In this document: positions 4,183-63,939 of the stretch, piece by piece | Layout of the letters: the number at the start of each line of letters is the position of its first letter | Numbering within the stretch: position 1 is the first letter of the stretch | Source: Candidatus Woesearchaeota archaeon | GTDB lineage: Archaea > Nanobdellota > Nanobdellia > Woesearchaeales > DSVV01 | Direction: 5' to 3' | Length of the DNA stretch: 64,000 bases | Assembly: GCA_016219865.1 (NCBI GenBank) | Contig: JACRKF010000021.1 | Location: 2,224-66,223, forward strand | Notes under the pieces: generated by a model | What the model saw: only the letters and a program-made list of their open reading frames with translations | Database searches by the model: none | What the model was told of the DNA's origin: nothing | Translations under genes and position numbers: made by a program

Positions 4183-5103
4183 ATGCTTGAAAATACCTCA
4201 GAATATCCAATATTTAAGTCAGTAAATGAATTATTAGACAATTCTGCTGAAAATATGGCAGATAGAATCATCTCTGCCGGCATTAAACAGAAAATAGAAA
4301 ACATATTTGCTTTGCTTAAAGGATTGCAGCACAAAACAAAAGTATATGTCGCTTTTTCAGGAGGAGTTGATAGTTCATTGATTCTCAAGCTTGCGCATGA
4401 TGTTTTAAATGAGAAAGTTATTGCAGTTACAGGAATTTCTTCTTCAGTTGCGAAAAATGAGATTGAGATTGCAGCAAGTATATCAAAGACTATTGGAACA
4501 CAGCACATTTTCCTCAATACAAATGAGATGAATGATGAAAATTATTTAAAAAATCCAACAGATCGTTGTTATTATTGTAAATCAGAGCTTTACAAACAAT
4601 TATCTTTATACATAAACAAGGAGAAAGTCACTGATTTTATAATTCTTGACGGCGCAAATTTTGATGACTTGCAGGATTTTCGCCCAGGAACAAAAGCTGC
4701 AAAAGAATTTCAGGTTAGAAGCTTGCTTCAAGAAGCAGAAATGACAAAAGAAGAGATTCGTTTAGTCTCCCATTTATTGCATATTCAAGTATGGGATAAA
4801 CCATCTACGCCATGTTTATCTTCTCGTGTTGCATTTGGTGAAAGAATAACTTCAGAAAAACTTAGTAATATTGAAAAAGCAGAGAATCTAATCCATTCTC
4901 TTGGAATAAAACAAGTTCGTGTAAGATATCATGCAAATTCAATTGCAAGAATTGAAATAGATCCTCTTGATTTCCGAAAAATATTTGAACATTATGAATC
5001 TGTATCAAAAGCGCTAAAACAACTTGGGTTCCAATGCATTACAGTTGATTTAGAAGGATATAAAAGGGGAAACTTGCATTTATTAAATAATAATAATAAA
5101 TAG
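4183..5103 (+). CDS. larE: PP-loop ATP pyrophosphatase, LarE-like sulfur-insertion protein
   Basis: The PP-loop VAFSGGVDSSL is present, along with a conserved Cys motif DRCYYCK. It lies upstream of larB and larC. Confidence 0.65.
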   Translation: MLENTSEYPIFKSVNELLDNSAENMADRIISAGIKQKIENIFALLKGLQHKTKVYVAFSGGVDSSLILKLAHDVLNEKVIAVTGISSSVAKNEIEIAASISKTIGTQHIFLNTNEMNDENYLKNPTDRCYYCKSELYKQLSLYINKEKVTDFIILDGANFDDLQDFRPGTKAAKEFQVRSLLQEAEMTKEEIRLVSHLLHIQVWDKPSTPCLSSRVAFGERITSEKLSNIEKAENLIHSLGIKQVRVRYHANSIARIEIDPLDFRKIFEHYESVSKALKQLGFQCITVDLEGYKRGNLHLLNNNNK

Positions 5104-6016: not shown

Positions 6017-6283
6017 ATGAACAAACCAATTATTTTACATAGCCCAACATTAGAATCTGTTTTTATGGTAGAAGAAACAATACAAAAATATAGCCAAGAA
6101 TGTGGCAAGTATCAATTATGGAAAAAATTACCAAAAAAAATGATGTATCAGACATTCCAGATAATTTTAGATTATCTTGAACAATCAGGAAAAATAATCA
6201 TAGATAAAGATGGTTGTATAATTTGGACTTTTAATCCAGAAAGAATCAAGAAAATCTTAAAAGAGGATTTGATTATACGATGA
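6017..6283 (+). CDS. putative antitoxin (small protein overlapping a downstream RelE/ParE-like gene)
   Basis: The 88-aa ORF overlaps the next ORF in the 4-bp ATGA arrangement. No recognisable motif. Confidence 0.35.
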   Translation: MNKPIILHSPTLESVFMVEETIQKYSQECGKYQLWKKLPKKMMYQTFQIILDYLEQSGKIIIDKDGCIIWTFNPERIKKILKEDLIIR

Positions 6284-6650: not shown

Positions 6651-7427
6651 ATGACTAAAAATAAATTATACATTGATTGCCCATCTGGAATTGCAGGTGA
6701 TATGTTTATTGCCGCTTGCATTGATTTAGGTGTTAGTATAAACTATCTTCAAACAGAACTGAAAAAACTAAAGATTGACAAATTCTCAATAGCTGCAAAA
6801 ACTGTTGATAAAAAAGGGATTACTGCAAAACATCTTGAAGTAACTATTGAAAAAAATAATCATGAAAACCATCACCATGATGAAAATCATCATCATGAAC
6901 GCCATCTCTCTGATATCAACAAACTTATTGATGAAAGCTCATTATCTACTGGTGTAAAGATGCTTTGCCAAAAGATATTTCACAAACTTGCTTCAGCAGA
7001 AGCATTTGTGCATAACACAACAATTGATAAAGTTCATTTTCATGAAATTGGCGCAATGGATTCAATTATTGATATCATCGGCGCAGCTATTTGTTTGCAA
7101 CAGCTTGGAATAGATGAAGTGCATTGCTCAGAGATACCAATACCTGCTGGCAAGATTATTTGCGATCATGGTGAAATCTCAAATCCAGCTCCTGCAACTC
7201 TCAAACTATTGGAAGGTTTTGAAACATACAAGGTAGATATAAAAAAAGAAATAATAACACCAACATGAGCAGCATTGCTGAAAACACTGGTAAAAGAACA
7301 AAAAGATTTTGAAATGTTTGAAAAAGAGATGAAAGTTAAAAACATCAAGATAATTAAAAAAGGATATGGCGCTGGCGCAATGGATTTAAAAAAACCAAAT
7401 GTACTACGATTGTTATTACTGAGATAA
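6651..7427 (+). pseudogene. larC: LarC (nickel insertase) N-terminal domain interrupted by an in-frame TGA at 7266-7268; the frame stays open for 52 more codons
   Basis: LYIDCPSGIAGDM, a His-rich stretch (HENHHHDENHHHERH) and HFHEIGAMDSIIDI are classic LarC features. The TGA falls on the conserved Gly of TPT-G-AALLKTLV. After the TGA the sequence still reads AALLKTLV...GYGAGAMDL in frame. Confidence 0.7.
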
Positions 7428-7466
7428 GATTACGCCTATAGCGTAATCTTATCTCAGTAATAACAA
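7410..7466. other. 26-bp perfect inverted repeat with a 5-nt loop (strong stem-loop)
   Basis: tgttattactgagataagattacgc-ctata-gcgtaatcttatctcagtaataaca. It overlaps the end of the larC read-through frame and lies upstream of the GalT-like gene. Confidence 0.5.
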
Positions 7467-7499
7467 ACTATTTTAAACCACAATGCCTTAATTCAGAAA

Positions 7500-8441
7500 A
7501 TGGGAGAGCTTCGCAAGGATTATGTGCTAGAAAAATTTGTAATTATTTCAGATACTCGTAAGGATAGACCGCATGACTTTCATAAGCAACAAAACACACA
7601 AGCAGCTCCAACAAATAAAATCTGCAGTTTCTGTCCAGGAAATGAACTTCTGACAACCAAAGAGATCATGCATATTGAAAAAGATAACAAATGGATTATG
7701 CGAGTTATTCCAAACAAATTCCCAGCATTAGAATTAAAAGGGAAATCGCAGATTACGACAGATAATCAATATTATACATATTCTGATAATTATGGGCAAC
7801 ATGAGATTATTATCGAAACAAACAAGCATGGAGAACAGATATATGATTACAGCAGAGAACACTTCATTAAACTGCTGCATTTGTATAAAGCAAGAATTCT
7901 TGTATTAAACAATAATGAAAAAATTGAATATGTGCAAGTGATAAAAAATCACGGCAAAGATGCAGGCGCAAGCATTGAACATTCTCATTCACAAATATTT
8001 GCTTATAATATGATTCCCATAACTATTCAACAAAAAGAAAAAGCGTGCAAAGATAACTGCGCTTATTGTGAGATTATTTTGCGAGAGAAAGATTCCTACA
8101 GACGATGTTTTGAAAACAATTCGTTTGTTGCCTTTACACCTTATGCATCAAGATTTGCCTATGAAATCATCATATTTTCAAAACAACATAAGCTTTCGTT
8201 AATTGACTTTAGTGATGCAGAAATTAAAGAATTAGCTGAGATCATGCAAAAAATTCTGGCAAAACTCAAAGAGCTTGGGCAAGACTTTAATTTCTATTTC
8301 CAGAATGGAATTAAAAATATGCATTTCCATGTTGAATTTACTCCACGAATAAACATCTTTGCTGGCTTTGAGTTTGCAACAGAAACAGTGATCAATACAA
8401 TCTATCCAGAAGATGCAGCGAAATGGTATCGAGGAGAATAA
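7500..8441 (+). CDS. galactose-1-phosphate uridylyltransferase-like nucleotidyltransferase (GalT/HIT superfamily)
   Basis: A CSFCPGNE Zn motif and an HSHSQIF (H-x-H-x-Q) active-site-like motif are present. 313 aa. Confidence 0.7.
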   Translation: MGELRKDYVLEKFVIISDTRKDRPHDFHKQQNTQAAPTNKICSFCPGNELLTTKEIMHIEKDNKWIMRVIPNKFPALELKGKSQITTDNQYYTYSDNYGQHEIIIETNKHGEQIYDYSREHFIKLLHLYKARILVLNNNEKIEYVQVIKNHGKDAGASIEHSHSQIFAYNMIPITIQQKEKACKDNCAYCEIILREKDSYRRCFENNSFVAFTPYASRFAYEIIIFSKQHKLSLIDFSDAEIKELAEIMQKILAKLKELGQDFNFYFQNGIKNMHFHVEFTPRINIFAGFEFATETVINTIYPEDAAKWYRGE

Positions 8442-8490: not shown

Positions 8491-9309
8491 ATGAATTTTA
8501 AAGCCATAAAATTCGACAAAGATATCATTATTGATAATTATATAAAAACAAAAAGTTTAAATATCAACTATTTATATTATAGACTTATGCAAGCAATAAC
8601 ATTCCTCAAAAACGTAGAACATCTTCACAAACCTGTTTTTTCATTGCAAGATGCAGCAAAAATGATTGAGAAAAAAAAAGGATATGCACGTCTTTATCTT
8701 TATCGTTTGAAAAGAAAAGAATATATCAAAGAAATTGAAAAAGGGAAGTATAGTATTTCAGATGACATCTATGAAATTGCCTCAAATGTTGTATTTCCTT
8801 CATATATCTCATTCTTGAGCGCATTTTCTCTATATGGTTTAACAACACAAATACCAAAGAGGATACAAATTATTGCAGCAAAACCAAAAAAAGAATTAAT
8901 AGTTGATGATTCAACTATTGAATTTATTACATTTAAGAATAAGAATATTTTTGGATATGAAAGAACAAAGATTGGAGTTCATTATGGCATGATTGCAGAA
9001 AAAGAAAAAGCAATAATTGATGCATTATACTTACCGCAACATTGCCCAATCAGTGAAACATTTGAAGTGCTTAAGAATAAAGAATTTGACATCGACAAAT
9101 TAGTTGATTATGCTCTGCAGATGGATTCAATAATATTATTAAAAAGACTTGGTTATCTTTTAGAATTAGTAGAATTTAACATTTTTGAAAAAGTAAAACA
9201 TAAGTTAAATCAACGTTATGATCTTTTGAATCCATTTCTCCCTGCTTCAAATAAAGAATGTATAAAATCTATGAAATGGAAACTAATTATAAATGAGGTG
9301 CTTGAATGA
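8491..9309 (+). CDS. AbiEi-like antitoxin / transcriptional regulator (type IV TA)
   Basis: wHTH-like N-terminus. 4-bp overlap with the AbiEii gene. Confidence 0.5.
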   Translation: MNFKAIKFDKDIIIDNYIKTKSLNINYLYYRLMQAITFLKNVEHLHKPVFSLQDAAKMIEKKKGYARLYLYRLKRKEYIKEIEKGKYSISDDIYEIASNVVFPSYISFLSAFSLYGLTTQIPKRIQIIAAKPKKELIVDDSTIEFITFKNKNIFGYERTKIGVHYGMIAEKEKAIIDALYLPQHCPISETFEVLKNKEFDIDKLVDYALQMDSIILLKRLGYLLELVEFNIFEKVKHKLNQRYDLLNPFLPASNKECIKSMKWKLIINEVLE

Positions 9310-10058
9310 TACTGCGAAATCAATTAGGAAAATATGCGCAGATGCTTAACTATGATCTTGGACAGACAGAAAAAGATTATCTGCAGCATTTGTTTTTATT
9401 TTTTCTATCACAACATGATACAACAAACCTTGTGTTCAAAGGCGGAACAGCATTGCAGAAAGTATATGGTTTGAATAGATTTAGCATTGACCTTGATTTT
9501 ACTGCTAAAGAAAATAACATTGACTTCAAGATGTTAATAGAGAAAATTGCAAAGAAAATAACAGATTTTGGTTATAACTGCAAAGTGCAAGAGATAAAGA
9601 CAATTGGAAAAACATTTGTGATAAAAATACAAGGCCCTCTTTATCAAAACAGTCAAGTAAGCACTTGCACATTGCGTATTGAAGTTAGCTTTCGTGAATC
9701 ACTTTTGCTTCAACCAATCCTAAAAGAGATCATTCCATCATACACTGATTTACAACCCTATACTATCCTTGTCATGCAAACAGAAGAGATATTAGCAGAA
9801 AAAGTGCGTGCAATTATGACACGAAACAAACCAAGAGATATATTTGATCTTCATTTCTTGCTGCTGAAAAACACAGCTTTCAATATTGAGTTTATCAACA
9901 AGAAACTAGATTATTATAAGGAAAAATACAATAAAAAAGCATTTTTACAAAAGATAAAAGAAAAAGAGAAAATATGGAATCATGAAATGAAGCAGTATAT
10001 TAGAAATCTACCTTCATTTGAATCTATTGAAAAAGAGATCATAAAAAGAGTCTCTTAG
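9306..10058 (+). CDS. AbiEii/AbiGii-family nucleotidyltransferase toxin
   Basis: The LVFKGGTALQKVYGLNRFSIDLDF motif is typical of DUF1814 (AbiEii). Confidence 0.8.
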   Translation: MILRNQLGKYAQMLNYDLGQTEKDYLQHLFLFFLSQHDTTNLVFKGGTALQKVYGLNRFSIDLDFTAKENNIDFKMLIEKIAKKITDFGYNCKVQEIKTIGKTFVIKIQGPLYQNSQVSTCTLRIEVSFRESLLLQPILKEIIPSYTDLQPYTILVMQTEEILAEKVRAIMTRNKPRDIFDLHFLLLKNTAFNIEFINKKLDYYKEKYNKKAFLQKIKEKEKIWNHEMKQYIRNLPSFESIEKEIIKRVS

Positions 10059-25577: not shown

Positions 25578-27515
25578 CTAGCGTATCCTGCTTTTAGCAG
25601 CCTGAAACACATGCTCAGGGAGAACACTTTGAACTGAGATGATACCATAATGCAGACCAATTGCTTCTGCTGGCGCTTCTTGCTTTGTATAACTAAATCC
25701 ATTGCCATTAGAACTCAAAGGAAATAAAGAAACTTGTACTGATGAATTTACCCCTAAGTCTCTAAGATTAGGAAAATGTGTTGGAAGAATTGCGCGAACA
25801 CCTTTATTGAGAAAAGTGTTTTCTGCAATTGCATATAAGATTGCTGCGCCGTCATCTGCTCTTGTTGCAGTTCCCTATTCATCTAATACCACAAGACAAT
25901 ACGATTCACAACCTGTAATCTGCTCATACAGCTCTTTGATTGCTTGTTTTTCAGCAGCAAAACTGCTTTTAATATTTGTTCCTACTTGCCTATGCCTTAC
26001 AAATATTCTTTCATGGATTGAGATTGTAGCAGAACTTGCTGGGACATATAATCCAGCCTGCGCAAAATTCACAAGTATTGCAGCCATATCAGCATAGATT
26101 GACTTTCCTGCTTCATTTGGACCTTCAACTATCTCAACAAGAGTATCGTGATTAAGATAGACGCTATTTGGCATTGGTTTGGAAACATGAAGGAAAGGAT
26201 TTAGGCCATTTTCAATATTGATTATCCTTTCTTCTTTTGGAACAATTGTAGACCTTACCCTTTTTTTTTCTTTAAAAAATTTTGCTAATCCTGCATACAA
26301 AGCAATCTCTTTTTCAATTTTTTTAAAAGAAGTTGTAATATATCTAAATTTCTCGAGGGAATTACGTTCCCCAAATAGATGATATAACTCTTTAGCATCT
26401 TTTGGATCTGCTGCTATAATCTCTTGCAACTTCTTTTTTAATGAAGAAATTCCTTTCTCTTCATTCTTCATTATATGATCCACAGCTCTCTGTATACGAC
26501 CAAGTTGCGGAACATCAGCATCAGTAAGATCTGGAAATGAGATGCTTTCCAGATTTTGAACAACATTTTTTACATTTTTCATAAATTGTTCATAACAAAA
26601 TTGAGCAACATCTTTAGCTTCTTCTGGATCAAAGAGATAGGTTCCACCATCTCTTGATTGGATATTACCCATCCTATGACCATGTTTAGAATGTTTATTC
26701 ATAAATCCTATCCCTGCTTTTCCTTTATAGCACTGAAATAGATCCATGACAGACCAAAGAAGAGCTTTCATAGTAGAATCGAGAGAGATGCAATCATTTT
26801 TTGTCAAAGATTTTAAAAGATCGTCATTAACCATAAAATAATTGATTGCGTCAGTTCGTTGAGCAATAAGATTTCTGTCAGTCAATGGATTAAGCACCCA
26901 ATCAGCAAGTTGAGGTTTGTCTAGATCATATCCTGAAAATAATGCATTAAGCAATCGTGGAGTTGGTTTTTCCATAGTAAAGAAATAACCAAATGTCTTT
27001 TCTGTATCACCACCATAAAGCGCATTATAACTTTCATGATCAAGAACTGCACTATGTAAAAAACTAAGCGAATCATCTTTAGGTAAACTCCCTTTTACTA
27101 ATTGAGGATGCTTTGTATATGATAGATCAATCTCATCAACAAGAACAACAATATTGCCATATTTAACAGAATCCATATTAATTTTAGGCGCAATCACTAT
27201 ATCTGCAGATTCAAGACGAGCTTTGTATCTTTTTGGATCAAGAGAAAACTTTTCAAGAGGAATACTGGACATCCTCATTTTTGTTTGAACAAGAGCCTTG
27301 TAAAGAGAAAGTGCTTCCTTTATATGAACAGGGATATGATCATCACGACGTGAATCATACTTTCCATAATTAAGAGAATCGAGATCATGTTTCCCATTAA
27401 CTTTTGAAGCAATAGTCCCTACAAAAACTGCGCTTAGATTATGATGCAATTCACTCCTTAACTCAAGAATTTTAGCTCCAGTTTCTAATGTTTGTATTTC
27501 CTCTTCAAGCGTCAT
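25578..27515 (-). pseudogene. MutS-family ATPase (domain V) interrupted by an in-frame TAG at 25875-25877; read-through would give about 645 aa
   Basis: Walker A GPNEAGKS. The sequence reads ...SYCLVVLDE-[TAG]-GTATRADDGAAILYAIAE...THF, which matches MutS LLDE-I-GRGTSTyDG...TH. No MutS domain I (GDFYELF) is present. Confidence 0.7.
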
Positions 27516-29222: not shown

Positions 29223-29262
29223 GGAGAATTTTGCAAGAATTGTTATTCTTGTAAAATTCTCC
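29223..29262. repeat. palindromic repeat, family A, copy (ggagaattttgcaagaat-tgtt-attcttgtaaaattctcc)
   Basis: 18-bp arms with one mismatch. It abuts the mutL stop codon. Confidence 0.7.
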
Positions 29263-30960
29263 TTACTCTTTCCTCTTAAACTTCTTCTCAAGTTCATACA
29301 ATGAATAATGTATTATTGCTGGACGTCCATGCGGGCAAGTGAATTTATTTTCGCATTGAAACAATTCTTCCAGAATTCTATAGATCTCTGGAAATTCTAA
29401 TACATCATGCGCTTTTACTGCGCTTCTGCAAGCTGCTCGTGCTATTCTCTCCTCCTTAATTTCCTCAATTTTCACCGTTTCGCCAAGATTTAATTCATCA
29501 ATAACATCATAGATTAATTGTTTCTGTTGTGTTCTTCCAAAAACAGAAGGTAATGAGCGAAGCAGATAACTATCATTACCAAATAACTCAAGATTAAACC
29601 CAGTGCTTTGCAGCAATTCAATATTCTGCTCTATAATAACGCGTTCATTTGGTGTTACATGCAACACAATTGGTGTTAATAATTGCTGCGCATGTATATG
29701 CTTATCTTTGCATTCTTGCAAGAATTTCTCATACATAACTCTTTCATGCGCTGCATGCTGATCAATCAGAAGCATTCCTTTTTCATCTTCTGCAATGATA
29801 AATGTATTATGTATCTTTCCAATTAATCGTATATTCAACACTTGTTTTAAAGGTAATAAAGACGGCGCTTGCGTGAATGCAGTTTGATATTCAATAAACT
29901 GCCCTGCTGAGGACAATATAAGTTTTGCATCAATCTCTTTTGGTCTTGATTCAATCACTTCCGGAATCAAATTTTCTTCAACTAAGCAATCGATAACTGC
30001 TTTCTTTATTGCTTCATAGATTAAATATTCTTTATCAACTCTGACAATTGATTTTGAAGGATGCACATTAACATCAACTTTCTGCGGCAGAATAGTTATA
30101 TTTAAAATAAAGATCGGATGCCTTCCATGAAACAAGAAAGTGCCATAACCATCATAAACAGCTTTGTTAAGAACATAATTTTTAATATACCTTTTATTAA
30201 TGTACAAGCTTTGATATTCTTTATCTGTCCTTGCTGCATTTGGCTTGCCGATATAACCATTAATCTCAACATCGCCATTTGCAAAGTTAACAGCCAGAAA
30301 CTCTTTTGTTAAATCTCTGCCATATATTGTTATAATATTATTCAGCAGATCTGTTGTAGACGGTGAATTAATAATTGTCTTCCCATTATGCGTCAACAGA
30401 AAATGCATCTCTGGATGGATTAATGCATAACGAGTAATGATATCAATAATATGATTAAATTCCACTGCAATTCCTTTCAGATGTTTTTTTCGCGCAGGAA
30501 CATTGTAAAAAAGATCAGAAACAGCAATCATTGTGCCTTGTTTTGCGCTGACATATTCCTGCTTTAAAACAATGCCATTTTCAACTGTTATTGAAACACC
30601 AACATCATTTTCTTTTGTTTTTGTTATCATTTCAAGCTTAGCAATTGAAGCAATACTTGCTAATGCTTCTCCTCGAAATCCAAGAGTTGTAATCTGAAAC
30701 AAATCCTGAAGATTATTTAATTTTGATGTAGTATGGCGCTGTATACTCATCACAACATCATCTTTCTCAATACCTGATCCATTGTCACTCACTTTAACAA
30801 GAGATTTCCCGCCTTCAATAACTTCAATGGAAATATGTGTTGCTTCTGCATCAATTGCATTCTCAACCAATTCTTTTACAACAGAAGCAGGTCTTTCAAT
30901 AACTTCTCCAGCTGCAATCTTATTTATTAAATCTTTATCAAGTTCTTTTATTTTACTCAT
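29263..30960 (-). CDS. mutL: DNA mismatch repair protein MutL (with endonuclease motif)
   Basis: GHKL motifs ELVENAIDA, DNGSGI and GFRGEAL are present. The C-terminal DQHAAHERVMYEKF is the DQHAxxExxxxE nicking motif. Confidence 0.9.
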   Translation of the reverse strand: MSKIKELDKDLINKIAAGEVIERPASVVKELVENAIDAEATHISIEVIEGGKSLVKVSDNGSGIEKDDVVMSIQRHTTSKLNNLQDLFQITTLGFRGEALASIASIAKLEMITKTKENDVGVSITVENGIVLKQEYVSAKQGTMIAVSDLFYNVPARKKHLKGIAVEFNHIIDIITRYALIHPEMHFLLTHNGKTIINSPSTTDLLNNIITIYGRDLTKEFLAVNFANGDVEINGYIGKPNAARTDKEYQSLYINKRYIKNYVLNKAVYDGYGTFLFHGRHPIFILNITILPQKVDVNVHPSKSIVRVDKEYLIYEAIKKAVIDCLVEENLIPEVIESRPKEIDAKLILSSAGQFIEYQTAFTQAPSLLPLKQVLNIRLIGKIHNTFIIAEDEKGMLLIDQHAAHERVMYEKFLQECKDKHIHAQQLLTPIVLHVTPNERVIIEQNIELLQSTGFNLELFGNDSYLLRSLPSVFGRTQQKQLIYDVIDELNLGETVKIEEIKEERIARAACRSAVKAHDVLEFPEIYRILEELFQCENKFTCPHGRPAIIHYSLYELEKKFKRKE

Positions 30961-30990: not shown

Positions 30991-32379
30991 TTAATTGTGA
31001 TTTAATACCTGATTCAGATTATGGTTGCCTTTATCACTAATACCATATCTTTCTCTAACAATTCTTTCTTCTCTATCAGTTAAGCGAGATAATAGTTGTT
31101 TTAATCTAAAACTATCATCTTTTACAAGAGCAGAATCATCAGCTGAAACTGATGCTGTATTCTCAAGCACATCATAATAAGTCATTTCTTTTCCTGTACC
31201 AACGGCATCATCAAGTGAAGTAAGTGTTAATCGTTTTTTGTATTCATCATATGTTTTTTCATCAAGATACTTCCTTTTGCCTGTTATTTCCATCTCATAC
31301 TCTAAATCTTCAAAAGTTCTATGCTTTCTTTCTATCTCTCTATAAGTTGCTGCAAATTTCTCTTGCGCATGCACAGGAGTGCGTATAGTCTTATTCTGAT
31401 CTATAATTGCGCGAGTTACTGCTTGCTTTATCCACCATGTTGCATATGTTGAAAATTTATATCCTCTCTGCCCATCAAATTTTTCTACTGATTTCATTAA
31501 TCCAGTATTTCCTTCTTGAATTAAATCAGAAAGAGTCATATTGTCCAATAAATGAGTGTATTTCTTCGCAATTGAAACAACAAGACGAAGATTTGCATTA
31601 ACAAATTTATTGCGAAGTGAGAAATATTCTCTAAGATCTCTGCCTATGGAAATAAGATCCTCCTTGTAAGCATTATGTATTCTAAATGCTCTTGCATTCC
31701 CAGCTAAAGAATCACCTAATTTATTTTCATAAAACTCCATATAATGACAAGCTGCTGCCTTAAACAAAGAATATGAATTAAAATAAAATGAAGGATCAAC
31801 ACCAAAATCAATGATCTCTTTAAGAAATTCTTTTCCATACTCTACTTTTCTAGCAACAGATGGAATTATTCTGCCATATTTCAACCTTTTTTCACCCAAT
31901 ACCGGGATAATTTCTAAATAAAAGCTTTCAACTGCTTTACGCATTTGATCATATACATTACCATCTTTTTCTACCTCGCCTTTATCAGTTACTTGTTCTT
32001 CATCTTCATTACTTTCTTGAATATAACCCTGTTGTTCAGCATCGCCATTATCAACTTTCTGTTTAGAAATTGCATAAGCAACTCTTTTCTCTAAACGAAA
32101 AACTTTTAACAATGGTTGAAGAACATATTCTGGATTTATACCATAAACTTTTCCGATAAAAGAACTTCTCACTTCACGAAGTCTTTGGGAAAGATTAATT
32201 TCTTCATCTCTTGTTAGTAATTTAATTGCGCCCATACTTTTCATATAAGTAGAACAAGAATCTGAATCAATAAGTTCAGAACCATTAGGCCGAGAATCAC
32301 CTGGAATATAAATACCCTCTGCATAATCATCTAATCCTAATGCATGAATTCTATTCTCCAACCCCACAATCTCTTCCAT
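30991..32379 (-). CDS. bacterial-type sigma-70 family protein (regions 1.2, 2, 3, 4.1), apparently lacking the region 4.2 recognition helix
   Basis: Region 2 [11 protein letters not shown]...[41 protein letters not shown] is nearly identical to the RpoD consensus. Region 1.2 ([16 protein letters not shown]) and region 4.1 ([15 protein letters not shown]) are present. The ORF ends right after NLNQV. Confidence 0.8.
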
Positions 32380-33902: not shown

Positions 33903-34415
33903 TTACCAACTTCCACTTAAAGTATATCCATTAAGTATATTATGGAGAAGTTCTTTGTTTGTTACATTCTCCATCCTATGAAATTGCATTACTTGTATTT
34001 CTCTTTTTAGAATTTTTTCATATTTTTTTAGATCTAGTTTCTTATCAGTTGGTGTAAAAACAGCAATATCTATATCTGAATCTGATCTTGCCTCTGCTTT
34101 TGATAACGAACCAAAAAGTATAATGACTGGATTTAGCAGTTCATTTTCGAAATAATCAAGCATTCCTGATTTTTCAAGAATAGATCTCCAATAGAGCCTT
34201 GATAAATCAATAAAGAACTGAGAGTCTTTATTTGCATAATAATATATATACAATTTATCTACTTCCTTTTTTAAGATTTTCTCGATAAAGAAAGTATCAA
34301 GAAGTTTAGATGCTGTTGGTGGACTTATCTTTTGCATTCTTGCATATTCTCTGACATTGATTCTCCTATAATTATCTTCCATAAACGATTTCAATCTGTT
34401 AATTATTTCTAACAT
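33903..34415 (-). CDS. minimal nucleotidyltransferase (MNT) with an N-terminal wHTH
   Basis: GSLSKAEARSDSDIDIAVF matches the GS-x9-DxD nucleotidyltransferase motif. Confidence 0.75.
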   Translation of the reverse strand: MLEIINRLKSFMEDNYRRINVREYARMQKISPPTASKLLDTFFIEKILKKEVDKLYIYYYANKDSQFFIDLSRLYWRSILEKSGMLDYFENELLNPVIILFGSLSKAEARSDSDIDIAVFTPTDKKLDLKKYEKILKREIQVMQFHRMENVTNKELLHNILNGYTLSGSW

Positions 34416-36537: not shown

Positions 36538-37176
36538 ATGATAACCAAAAAAAGAAAGGTTTATATAGTTCCAACCCATAACTATAGTTATATGGAGAAT
36601 CCGCATAGTTTCAAAACAATACAGTTGTTATATAATGAAACCGCAGAAAAAAGAATATTAAGAAGACTTTTTCTTGATCCTAATAAAGAGTTTAGTTTAT
36701 CTGATCTTGCAACGCAGTCTTCTATGCGAAAAGAAAACATTGGAAAGATTTTAAAACATTTTGAAAAGAATGATTTGATCACAATAGCAAGACTGAAAAC
36801 AATTTGGCAGATACGTGCAAACCAGCAAAATAGCTTATTTATAAGAATGAAGATAGTCCATAATTTGCAGAACATTTACAATTCAGGTTTAGTTGACTTT
36901 CTGAATGAATATTACAACAATCCAAAAGCAATTGTCCTCTTTGGAAGTTATAGGAAAGGTGAAGATATTTCAACATCAGACATTGATATTGCAGTCGAGG
37001 ATGATTCAATTAAAGAATATAAGATACTTGAATTAAAAGAACTGAAAGAAATAGAAAAACATCTGCAAAGAAAAATACAGGTTCATTTATTCAATAGAGC
37101 AGATATAAACAAGAATGTATTCAGCAATATTGCCAATGGCATTGTGTTATTTGGTTTTTTAGAGGTTAATCTATGA
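36538..37176 (+). CDS. nucleotidyltransferase (MNT) with an N-terminal wHTH
   Basis: LFGSYRKGEDISTSDIDIAV. 4-bp overlap with the next gene. Confidence 0.7.
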   Translation: MITKKRKVYIVPTHNYSYMENPHSFKTIQLLYNETAEKRILRRLFLDPNKEFSLSDLATQSSMRKENIGKILKHFEKNDLITIARLKTIWQIRANQQNSLFIRMKIVHNLQNIYNSGLVDFLNEYYNNPKAIVLFGSYRKGEDISTSDIDIAVEDDSIKEYKILELKELKEIEKHLQRKIQVHLFNRADINKNVFSNIANGIVLFGFLEVNL

Positions 37177-54298: not shown

Positions 54299-54413
54299 TT
54301 CATCACTCTTTTCTTCGCAAAAATAAGTTGCAAAAGGATATAAGTCATAAAAAATGACTCAATAACAAAAAAAGATTTAAAAATTGTAAAAAATCTTTGA
54401 TTTTTTACAATTT

Positions 54414-54869
54414 TTATTCAATTAATAATCTTACCTTATCAGGATCATATATCCAATCACTTGCTAATCTTTCTGTAGCTTTATAATACTTTACAATACG
54501 CTTAATCTTTGATTCAGTCAATTGCAAACCTCGTTTTGCTACCATGTCCTTTTTATTTTGCTCTAAATGCTTTTTTAACATAATACTATTCTTAATTAAC
54601 GCAAGCAAATCTTCAGGTAATGCGCCTTGTAATTTCTTTTCATCTAAGAATTGCGTTATGCTTTTATTTAACAACACTCTTACACTAGGAACACCATAAG
54701 TATCTCTTAAGATAATTCCTATTTGTGAAGGAGTATTTTTTTCTTTTGCAAGCTTTACAATAAGCATCTCAACTTCTTTTGGTTTATACCTAACCCAGCT
54801 TGGAATTGTTTTTTTCTGAGGTCTTTTTGAACCTGATTTTCCATGTTTTCCTGAATACATTCTTCCCAT
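54414..54869 (-). CDS. rps15: 30S ribosomal protein S15 (S13e)
   Basis: MGRMYSGKHGKSGSKRP...IPSWV matches archaeal S15/S13e. Confidence 0.9.
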   Translation of the reverse strand: MGRMYSGKHGKSGSKRPQKKTIPSWVRYKPKEVEMLIVKLAKEKNTPSQIGIILRDTYGVPSVRVLLNKSITQFLDEKKLQGALPEDLLALIKNSIMLKKHLEQNKKDMVAKRGLQLTESKIKRIVKYYKATERLASDWIYDPDKVRLLIE

Positions 54870-57839: not shown

Positions 57840-58433
57840 ATGAAAACCAAAACATTTTTAAATTTGATTAGCTTTACCCTAACTAAAATGAAGAAAGCAG
57901 ATAATATCTTAGAAATATTCTTTAATTACCCTACAAAACAGTGGCATTTTGAAGATATAGTAAGAACAGCAGCAATTAGTAGGCCGCAAGCCACAGGATG
58001 GTTAAAAAAGTTCATCAAAGAAAAAATCATCATAAGAATAAAACAAAAAAGAAGAATGCCATATTACATTGCAAATTATCAAAATGCACAATATCAGATT
58101 AAAAAACGATTATATGCATTAGATAATTTTGAAAAAAGTGGCTTTTTAGAGCATCTTACAACACTCCCAAAAGCAAATAACATTATTCTTTTCGGTAGTT
58201 TTAGCAGATGGGATTGGAATGATGAAAGTGACATTGATATTTTTGTATATGGCAGTACAGAAGGCTTTGATATGAGTTATTACAGAAAAAGACTAGGAAG
58301 AGAGATTCAATTATTCATATGTAAAGATGAAGAACAATTGCAAAAATATAATTCTGCTCTCTTGAGGAATATCATAGAGGGTTATCTGATTAAAGGTGAT
58401 TTACAATTTATTGAGGTAAAACCACATGTATAA
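57840..58433 (+). CDS. nucleotidyltransferase (MNT) with an N-terminal wHTH
   Basis: LFGSFSRWDWNDESDIDIFV. Confidence 0.65.
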   Translation: MKTKTFLNLISFTLTKMKKADNILEIFFNYPTKQWHFEDIVRTAAISRPQATGWLKKFIKEKIIIRIKQKRRMPYYIANYQNAQYQIKKRLYALDNFEKSGFLEHLTTLPKANNIILFGSFSRWDWNDESDIDIFVYGSTEGFDMSYYRKRLGREIQLFICKDEEQLQKYNSALLRNIIEGYLIKGDLQFIEVKPHV

Positions 58434-61167: not shown

Positions 61168-61203
61168 TTTAAGAATTTTGAAAAACTAAACGAAGCGAAT
61201 TTT

Positions 61204-61458
61204 TCAAAATTCTTTATAAATATTTTTTCTGTGACCTATTTTAATTACTAGAACAATTAATTTTTTATTATCAATATCAACAATAAGACGATAATCTCCA
61301 ACCCTAAGTTTATACGCAGATTCTCCTACAAGTTTTTCAACATATGTTTCAGGTCTTATTCTTACTCTTTCTAATTTAATAATAATTCTCTCTTGTAAAT
61401 CTCGATGTAATTTAGATAACTGTTTTTTTGCATTATCAGTAAATTCTATTCCGTACAT
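61204..61458 (-). CDS. RelE/ParE-family type II toxin
   Basis: YRLIVDIDNKKLIVLVIKIGHRKNIY matches the canonical RelE C-terminus. Confidence 0.75.
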   Translation of the reverse strand: MYGIEFTDNAKKQLSKLHRDLQERIIIKLERVRIRPETYVEKLVGESAYKLRVGDYRLIVDIDNKKLIVLVIKIGHRKNIYKEF

Positions 61459-61676
61459 TATAGTCCAAACTCCTTTTTAACAGATTCTAAACTATATGTT
61501 TTTCCTTCTTTTGCTTGTTTTCTGCCTAATTCTATTTCTCTTTTTGTTTCTTCATTAATTTCCATTGTATCTTCTAATAAATCCCATATGACCTCTTCAT
61601 AAGTTTCTCTTTCAGAAAATTTTCGCTTCTGCAATCGTAGCTGCAGTTCTCCACTGATTTGTATTGTTGTTGCCAT
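61458..61676 (-). CDS. putative antitoxin for the RelE-like toxin
   Basis: 72 aa. 1-bp overlap, upstream of the toxin. Confidence 0.5.
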   Translation of the reverse strand: MATTIQISGELQLRLQKRKFSERETYEEVIWDLLEDTMEINEETKREIELGRKQAKEGKTYSLESVKKEFGL

Positions 61677-63142: not shown

Positions 63143-63237
63143 ATTTCTTATGTCTGGATTACCCAACTGAGAGAGTTCTGATCAAAGCTATATCGCACTT
63201 AATATTTAATTTTTTTGCTTTCGCAAAAGCAAAAAAA

Positions 63238-63939
63238 TTAATGCTTATACTTTCCATGCCTTGATTTCATCTTATCTTTCATTGTAGAAACAGTATGCTT
63301 TATCTTCTCAACAAAACTTGCTGCATGCTTATCAATTGCATGCTTTGTTGCTGCAACTGCTGCTGCAATATTTGGCGAGAACACACCCAGCACAGTATGG
63401 ATGTTTTTGATTCTATTATGATATCTTTGTAAGTAAACAAGATTTTCAATTTTATATTTTTGCGGCATTGGCACAACTTCATCAGGATAGCCAAGTGTAA
63501 TAATCGCATGCGGTCGTGCATAATCAGGAATACTTAAAATTCTCTTTAATGCAACTTCATCAAAAGCTCCAACCCAGCAAGCGCCTAAGCCATAATGATG
63601 CGCAGCTAGCAACATATTTTCACATCCTGCTGCAACATTCTGGATAGTATAAAGACGTTCTCCCCGCAAACCATAGAATTGTTTTGGACGCTTTGTCTCA
63701 GCGCATGCTACAATAATAACAGGAGCTTGCTCCATCCAATATTGCTGCAATGATGCTTCTGCTATTGCTTTTCTCTTAGATTCATCTGTAACAACTATAA
63801 ACCGAAATTCCTGCAGATTGCCTGCTGTTGGAGCTAATGTGCCTGCTTCAACAACTCTTCCAACTAGTTCCCATTCTACTGGAATATCGACGTATTTCCT
63901 GATAGAACGTCGCGTATAGATGCACTCAAGAGTATCCAT
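63238..63939 (-). CDS. nitroreductase-family protein
   Basis: The N-terminus RRSIRKY...P...NLQ matches the nitroreductase fold. It carries a basic C-terminal extension. Confidence 0.8.
   Translation of the reverse strand: MDTLECIYTRRSIRKYVDIPVEWELVGRVVEAGTLAPTAGNLQEFRFIVVTDESKRKAIAEASLQQYWMEQAPVIIVACAETKRPKQFYGLRGERLYTIQNVAAGCENMLLAAHHYGLGACWVGAFDEVALKRILSIPDYARPHAIITLGYPDEVVPMPQKYKIENLVYLQRYHNRIKNIHTVLGVFSPNIAAAVAATKHAIDKHAASFVEKIKHTVSTMKDKMKSRHGKYKH

Follow-up and report, generated by a model that had tools for sequence, protein, structure and literature searches.

LarC (PF01969, TIGR00299) is the pyridinium-3,5-bisthiocarboxylic acid mononucleotide nickel insertase. It consists of two parts: LarC1, with a His-rich nickel site and an acidic pocket, and LarC2, with a CTP site (PMC13510736). 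Residue E187 lines the LarC1 pocket of the M. thermoacetica protein, and its Ala variant loses activity (PMC13510736). The LarC protein of L. plantarum is produced by programmed frameshifting, which joins larC1 and larC2 (PMC13510736). Split larC1/larC2 genes of this general kind are also found in Bacillaceae and in two contigs compared below (L083 and L084), and the separate LarC1 protein in these systems is ~240-275 aa long and ends with PNVLR plus a few residues. Split LarC1/LarC2 genes are common, and are already known and named: stand-alone LarC2 proteins of ~130-150 aa are numerous, and 'LarC2' exists as an NCBI product name.

Two kinds of system are relevant to a stop codon inside such a gene. 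In an ordinary prokaryotic nonsense pseudogene, one conserved residue is replaced by an in-frame stop, the relatives are intact and no other signal is present. In genetic code 25, which is used by Gracilibacteria and Absconditabacteria, UGA is read as Gly and is found where homologs have Gly.

The window analyzed here is a stretch of 64,000 nucleotides from a metagenome-assembled genome of a Candidatus Woesearchaeota archaeon (contig JACRKF010000021.1). It has ~31% G+C and carries archaeal markers, including RtcB, archease, the ribosomal proteins L15e, S27e and S15, aIF2-alpha and CDP-archaeol synthase. Near its start is a cluster, larE-larB-larC1, that would serve nickel-pincer nucleotide cofactor synthesis and in which LarC would be a stand-alone LarC1 of ~240-260 aa. 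The association of larB and larE with larC1 is present, in an order common to the window and to contigs L001, L079, L081 and L083; in L001, L079 and L081, as in the window, the order extends to tRNA-m2,2G methyltransferase, larE, larB and larC1, with no larC2 following. The features of the locus are:

4183..5103, forward strand: larE (PP-loop ATP pyrophosphatase, sulfur insertase), intact, 306 aa; PP-loop Pfam matches; syntenic with a 313-aa gene in L001
5203..5988, forward strand: larB (AIR-carboxylase-like), intact, 261 aa; Pfam AIRC match, E 3e-19; 82% amino acid identity to L001
6017..6615, forward strand: two-gene toxin-antitoxin-like pair, 88 aa and then a 111-aa ParE/YoeB-like protein; weak ParE_toxin and YoeB_toxin matches; ATGA overlap at 6280-6283
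6651..7265, forward strand: larC1 before the stop (residues 1-205); Ni_insertion profile positions 1-191 of 375, E 4e-68
7266..7268, forward strand: in-frame TGA at the Gly206 position (TPT-G-AA), placed by alignment; codon GGC in relatives
7269..7427, forward strand: larC1 after the stop, 52 codons and TAA; Ni_insertion profile positions 203-234, E 2.7e-4
7410..7466, no strand assigned: hairpin of a perfect 26-bp stem and a 5-nt loop, with the TAA of the read-through frame in the left arm
7413..7442, forward strand: 30-nt lineage-specific insertion, an inverted copy of the ancestral 3' end of the gene; a gap in the L001 alignment
7500..8441, forward strand: GalT-like HIT-family nucleotidyltransferase, the downstream neighbour; present in L001, not in L079 or L081

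The larC1 reading frame is interrupted. An ORF at 6651-7268 starts with ATG and runs for 205 codons to the terminator TGA at 7266-7268 (the codons around it are ATA ACA CCA ACA TGA GCA GCA TTG). Past the TGA, the frame continues for 52 sense codons until TAA at 7425-7427, giving a read-through product of 258 aa. The 205-aa ORF is identical in sequence to an NCBI protein, 'LarC family nickel insertion protein [Candidatus Woesearchaeota archaeon]', so that NCBI has already annotated it as a short LarC family protein. The Ni_insertion profile match covers residues 6-205 of the product, the match of the continuation covers 7269-7424, and PDB 12bi matches query residues 6-256 with E 4e-44, the end of the read-through product aligning with the end of the LarC1 domain. 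Around FEMFEKEMK lies a lineage-specific insertion of 9 residues that the protein P0002 also has. The stretch after the TGA has 73% amino acid identity to the C-terminus of the closest homolog, that of L001. Because of this identity, and because 52 open codons have a probability of ~0.015 at the base composition of the sequence (our own estimate), the open frame after the stop is not a matter of chance.

In an alignment of 15 sequences, including 14 homologs, the TGA stands at Gly206 of the motif E-x-x-TPTGAA, in which T203, P204, T205 and A207 never vary and the conservation of G206 is 90% or higher. The site is occupied by Gly in all 14 homologs and never by Cys or Sec. At the DNA level, the codon is GGC in each of the three closest relatives with readable DNA, L001, L081 and L079, whose proteins are respectively 71%, 65% and 60% identical to that of the window. 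None of the best 120 database homologs is truncated at this position. Two short homologs, P0079 and P0047, were considered as further cases of the same stop and set aside, since TPTGAAL is intact in both and their ends have other causes. An earlier sequence-only reading of this DNA had described a LarC gene interrupted by TGA precisely at the conserved Gly of TPTGAA, with a read-through product of about 258 aa, and the profile, structure and alignment results bear out each of these points. It had also proposed a change from GGA to TGA, which is likely as the last step, GGA being the most frequent Gly codon of the window (442 of 971), even though the three relatives have GGC. The change from GGC to TGA requires two nucleotide substitutions, as would be expected at a dS of ~0.7-1.5, with GGA as the presumed intermediate.

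The residues that define the LarC1 active region lie on the near side of the stop. The window protein was mapped onto that of M. thermoacetica (Mt) through the PDB 12bi alignment, with chain numbering minus 18. The Mt histidines H72, H108, H116, H118 and H160 correspond to H85, H121, H129, H131 and H173, and the Mt acidic residues D15, E104, E119, D124, D128 and E187 to D17, E117, E132, D137, D141 and E200; all are present in the window, and R84 is also the counterpart of a named Mt residue. D17, E117, H121, H131, E132, D137, D141, H173 and E200 are invariant in the 15-sequence alignment. Every mapped residue of the His cluster and acidic pocket falls within residues 1-205, before the TGA. The stop comes six residues past E200, the counterpart of Mt E187, and it removes about one fifth of the LarC1 domain (52 residues), including the conserved GYGAG and PNVLR segments. 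Truncation at this point should therefore hurt the protein, and the 205-residue product is most likely inactive, judging from the position of the stop in the domain.

Comparison with L001 provides a measure of the age of the lesion. The part of larC1 before the TGA has a dN/dS of 0.21 (194 codons) and the part after it 0.11 (52 codons). The values for larE, larB and the GalT-like neighbour are 0.27, 0.11 and 0.06, respectively. Both larE and larB are under purifying selection, and in larC1 the sequence beyond the stop was constrained by purifying selection through essentially the whole divergence of the two lineages. The value of 0.11 after the TGA leaves three readings: the stop arose very recently, it is not real, or it is read through.

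The sequence-only reading pointed to a second gene of the window with an in-frame stop at a conserved residue, and a second interrupted gene is indeed present:

25578..27515, reverse strand: MutS-like gene interrupted in frame by TAG (25875-25877); MutS_V profile positions 2-85 precede the stop, and positions 88-182 come after it

This gene has MutS_III and MutS_V and lacks MutS_I, and its TAG immediately follows the Walker-B sequence VVLDE and aligns with the Leu of DE-L-GRGT in Msh3. Its only close homolog, P0218, is intact (635 aa) and has Trp at the site of the stop: the codons are GAA TAG GGA in the window and GAA TGG GGG in P0218, so that one G-to-A change suffices. The truncated MutS-like ORF is the NCBI protein HZA96_02320, from the same contig. 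No further gene in the window is split by an in-frame stop with a coding-like continuation, and gene lengths agree over the 20 kb that are syntenic with L001. The two lesions involve different stop codons, different ancestral residues and different types of substitution, and they have no common mechanism of recoding. The sequence-only reading had asked whether the two stops had a systematic cause, either recoding or a decaying lineage; the latter description holds only in the weak sense that two of 70 genes have fresh nonsense lesions, and the former is not supported. For a normally selected genome, a count of two such lesions in 64 kb is somewhat high. One idea is that a broken MutS paralogue accompanied by a second fresh nonsense lesion might reflect a mutator background. 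The MutL gene next to the MutS-like gene is intact (29263-30960).

The 3' end of larC1 carries a second peculiarity, a perfect hairpin over the end of the read-through frame, and this too had been correctly described from the sequence. Its arms (7410-7435 and 7441-7466) are 26 nt long and 100% complementary, with no internal loop or bulge, and the predicted folding energy is -38.7 kcal/mol (z -12.3). It begins 142 nt 3' of the TGA and covers the TAA at 7425-7427. No other hairpin in the window is as long, and the arm sequence is unique there. The ancestral end of the gene, GTA ATC TTA TCT CAG TAA, is still in frame at 7443-7460, and the L001 gene ends TTT TCA CAG TAA TAA and lacks the 30-nt insertion. 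The insertion changed the last residues from VILSQ to LLLR and made the stem. The simplest origin for the hairpin would be an inverted duplication by template switching, and the comparison with L001 shows it to be evolutionarily young.

Shorter hairpins were also noted at or over gene 3' ends elsewhere in the window. These are perfect or near-perfect stems of 15-18 bp at 54378-54416, 29223-29262, 63206-63241 and 61171-61214, and they belong to S15, MutL, a nitroreductase and a convergent gene pair. Their presence suggests that hairpins at gene ends are a general feature of this genome, with a plausible, putative role at the 3' end similar to that of a terminator.

Whether the larC1 UGA could be translated depends in the first place on how the codon is used elsewhere. 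The annotation places 70 genes in the window under the standard code, with a coding density of 88.6% and 18,860 codons. The terminal stops are TAA in 43 genes, TGA in 15 and TAG in 12. Glycine is specified by 971 GGN codons, and there are 133 TGG codons, against one in-frame TGA in the 18,860. Six of the TGA stops lie within 4-nt ATGA/GTGA overlaps with the start codon of the next gene (at 1016, 6280, 9306, 33506, 37173 and 45614). Matches to complete or nearly complete Pfam models are found in TGA-terminated genes as follows:

Transketolase_C: residues 199-320 of 334, profile positions 1-124 of 124
Fe-S_biosyn: residues 91-190 of 190, profile positions 3-108 of 110
ParE toxin: residues 4-81 of 84, profile positions 1-89 of 89
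HTH_40: residues 125-211 of 224, profile positions 2-89 of 89

No tRNA genes and no Rfam-recognisable RNA genes are present in the 64-kb window. UGA is a true stop in this organism.

These results leave almost no room for a genome-wide reassignment of UGA, either to Gly as in code 25 or to Trp as in code 4. A reassigned UGA would be unused as a stop and would appear in frame in many conserved genes; the window instead has 15 of 70 genes that are terminated by TGA, several of them just where their Pfam models end or in ATGA overlaps, and under the standard code all the other genes have open frames. The host is a Woesearchaeota archaeon, not a member of the Gracilibacteria or Absconditabacteria, and the likeness to code 25 comes down to a coincidence at one site, a TGA on a conserved Gly. 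The sequence-only reading had proposed a survey of UGA as Gly, and had held that many genes ending normally with TGA would make larC1 a plain pseudogene; the survey of the window gives this outcome, and recoding as a systematic cause is further contradicted by the TAG of the MutS-like gene. A UGA at a conserved Gly is thus no evidence for code 25 on its own, and the TGA-ended genes of a single window are enough to settle the matter. A special decoding of this one UGA, by insertion of selenocysteine with the hairpin as a 3'-UTR SECIS or by programmed or leaky read-through, would yield a full-length LarC1 and is quite improbable. The frame downstream of the TGA is conserved, as is the downstream part of the other stop-bearing gene, and a strong hairpin does occupy the position of a 3' UTR. 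However, archaeal SECIS elements have an internal loop, whereas the stem here is perfect over 26 bp, lies over a stop codon and overlaps the coding end, and it arose as an inverted copy of the end of the gene, which L001 does not have. A permissive Rfam scan of 7100-7600 returned no SECIS; its only matches, all far below threshold, were chance ones of the hairpin to miRNA precursors from plants and animals. Selenocysteine also sits poorly with a site that is Gly, not Cys or Sec, in the aligned homologs, and read-through with the GGC codon of three relatives. No stimulatory structure is found in the 80 nt past the UGA: the 91 nt around and after it (7255-7345) fold no better than shuffled sequences (z -0.29). 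The UAG of the MutS-like gene would moreover call for a second mechanism. A broader proposal is that the lineage may tolerate or suppress stops, through leaky termination or suppressor tRNAs, and so make both full-length LarC1 and full-length MutS-like protein. Stop tolerance, if true, would explain the unrelaxed constraint after both stops, and a low dN/dS after both is equally expected from read-through, yet we consider this proposal a long shot. A frameshift of the L. plantarum type, in which truncation would be part of the mechanism that joins larC1 to a downstream larC2, is scarcely credible at this locus. It has a precedent in the way L. plantarum LarC is made (PMC13510736) and in the split larC1/larC2 pairs of the Woesearchaeota-like contigs L083 and L084, but tblastn finds no LarC2-like sequence in any frame of the window, the next gene encodes the GalT-like HIT protein, and the stop falls inside the LarC1 domain rather than at its end. 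The larC1 gene is neither a case of recoding nor a new kind of LarC.

The best explanation, to which we assign a probability of roughly 0.65, is an ordinary young nonsense lesion that has made a fresh pseudogene of a stand-alone LarC1 gene, and we infer that the stop is real in the cells. By this explanation a single recent substitution, most simply GGA to TGA, would have struck the near-invariant Gly of TPTGAA, and ordinary termination at the UGA would end translation at residue 205 with the loss of the last 52 LarC1 residues. The same gene would have gained an inverted duplication of 30 nt of its 3' end, producing the hairpin; a toxin-antitoxin pair would have been inserted upstream of it; and the MutS-like gene would have undergone an independent nonsense change from TGG to TAG. 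The lesion resembles those of ordinary pseudogenes in being a single stop at a conserved residue with intact relatives and no other signal. It differs from them in being very young, without relaxed constraint downstream, and in that its inactivity is deduced from the truncation. The main rival, which is unlikely but has to be taken seriously, is that the TGA is a sequencing or assembly artefact, or a minor allele of the population, in the consensus of a metagenome-assembled genome, and that the real gene has GGA and encodes an intact LarC1 of 258 aa. It would account for the 52 downstream codons that are still in frame and conserved (dN/dS 0.11), for the retention of all functional residues and for the intact state of larE and larB. 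An independent assembly of one sequencing run also breaks inside larC1, which hints at low or uneven coverage. This assembly, the Logan contig L091 from run SRR12113407, is the only independent contig found. It encodes an identical LarB protein and is identical to the window up to position 6791, including the toxin-antitoxin pair, and there it ends, 141 nt into larC1 and before the TGA. Coverage of the larC1 region in SRR12113407 seems poor, and exact-protein look-ups for the same population found none of the 205-aa ORF, the GalT-like protein and the AbiEi protein on record. A scan of JGI metagenomes with an exact pattern, with N at the variable base, gave 0 matches, and protein-seeded scans of species-representative genomes and metagenomes gave no relative above 44% identity. 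A real mutation is nevertheless favoured, because two random consensus errors that both create stops are very improbable in 64 kb (by our own estimate only a few percent of coding substitutions make stops), because both lesions lie in dispensable accessory genes and none in an essential one, and because the larC1 locus has undergone other genuine, lineage-specific rearrangements, namely the 30-nt inverted duplication and the insertion of the toxin-antitoxin pair, which L091 confirms. Whether a fresh nonsense allele or an error in one base, the larC1 allele itself matters little, being that of an accessory cofactor gene in an uncultured DPANN archaeon.

Two observations about this part of the locus may be added. 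The break in L091 lies ~60 nt upstream of the His-rich coding stretch of larC1. The toxin-antitoxin pair stands between larB and larC1 only in this genome, with no gene at that place in L001, L079 or L081; its presence on the independent Logan contig confirms the insertion.

A more general question is raised by the missing LarC2. Profile and PDB matches, the His cluster, the acidic pocket and the clustering with larB and larE all mark the window gene as a LarC; it differs from the described protein in the TGA at Gly206, in the FEMFEKEMK insertion and in having no LarC2 in the ORF or in the 64-kb window. A tblastn search of all frames of the window with 94 LarC C-termini found no LarC2 domain (best E 0.018), and the window ORFs scanned against Pfam include no match to the lactate-racemase family. 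The sequence-only reading had remarked that the gene carries only the N-terminal domain. The absence of the CTP domain is borne out by tblastn, but it does not mark this copy as defective: the four Woesearchaeota homologs closest to it, of 237-251 aa, are also LarC1-only, and the nearest homologs (251, 242, 237, 241 and 238 aa) end at the same point. In L083, a more distant Woesearchaeota contig (46% identity), a separate larC2 ORF of 144 aa directly follows larC1, and L084 has the same arrangement; in these two contigs (L083 8001-9182, L084 5186-6390), larC1 genes of 241-262 aa and larC2 genes of 129-144 aa are 20-27 nt apart. The window and its three closest relatives differ from these split systems in having no larC2 after larC1, and the comparison shows a split larC1/larC2 form older than the LarC1-only arrangement of the clade to which the window belongs. 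P0155 was considered as a stand-alone LarC2 of the P0002 lineage and rejected, because it comes from another organism with adjacent larC1 and larC2. The clade may make the nickel-pincer cofactor with a LarC1-only insertase and no LarC2 CTP domain in the genome. This LarC1-only cluster in a small Woesearchaeota clade can be set against recent structural work, which argues that activity requires LarC2 and the linker; it is the only mildly interesting residue of the analysis and may interest workers on the nickel-pincer cofactor.

The GalT-like neighbour was considered as a partner of LarC1 and dropped, since its conservation is limited to the window and L001 and does not extend to L079 or L081. 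A link between this protein and the missing nucleotide-dependent function of LarC2 is conceivable, though unsupported. Its counterpart at L001 10796-11776 has 87% amino acid identity to it, and the pair has the dN/dS of 0.06 given above.

Two further features of the window are of some interest. A 462-aa ORF on the reverse strand (30991-32379), directly upstream of MutL, matches Pfam Sigma70_r2 (E 1.7e-18) and Sigma70_r1_2; this bacterial-type ORF with sigma-factor regions, on an archaeal contig, may belong to a block that came from bacteria. Toxin-antitoxin and defence-like modules are dense for 64 kb, with examples at 8491-10058, 33903-34415, 36538-37176, 57840-58433 and 61204-61676, and they include AbiEi/AbiEii, three Polbeta/NTP_transf_2 (MNT-like) nucleotidyltransferases and a ParE pair.
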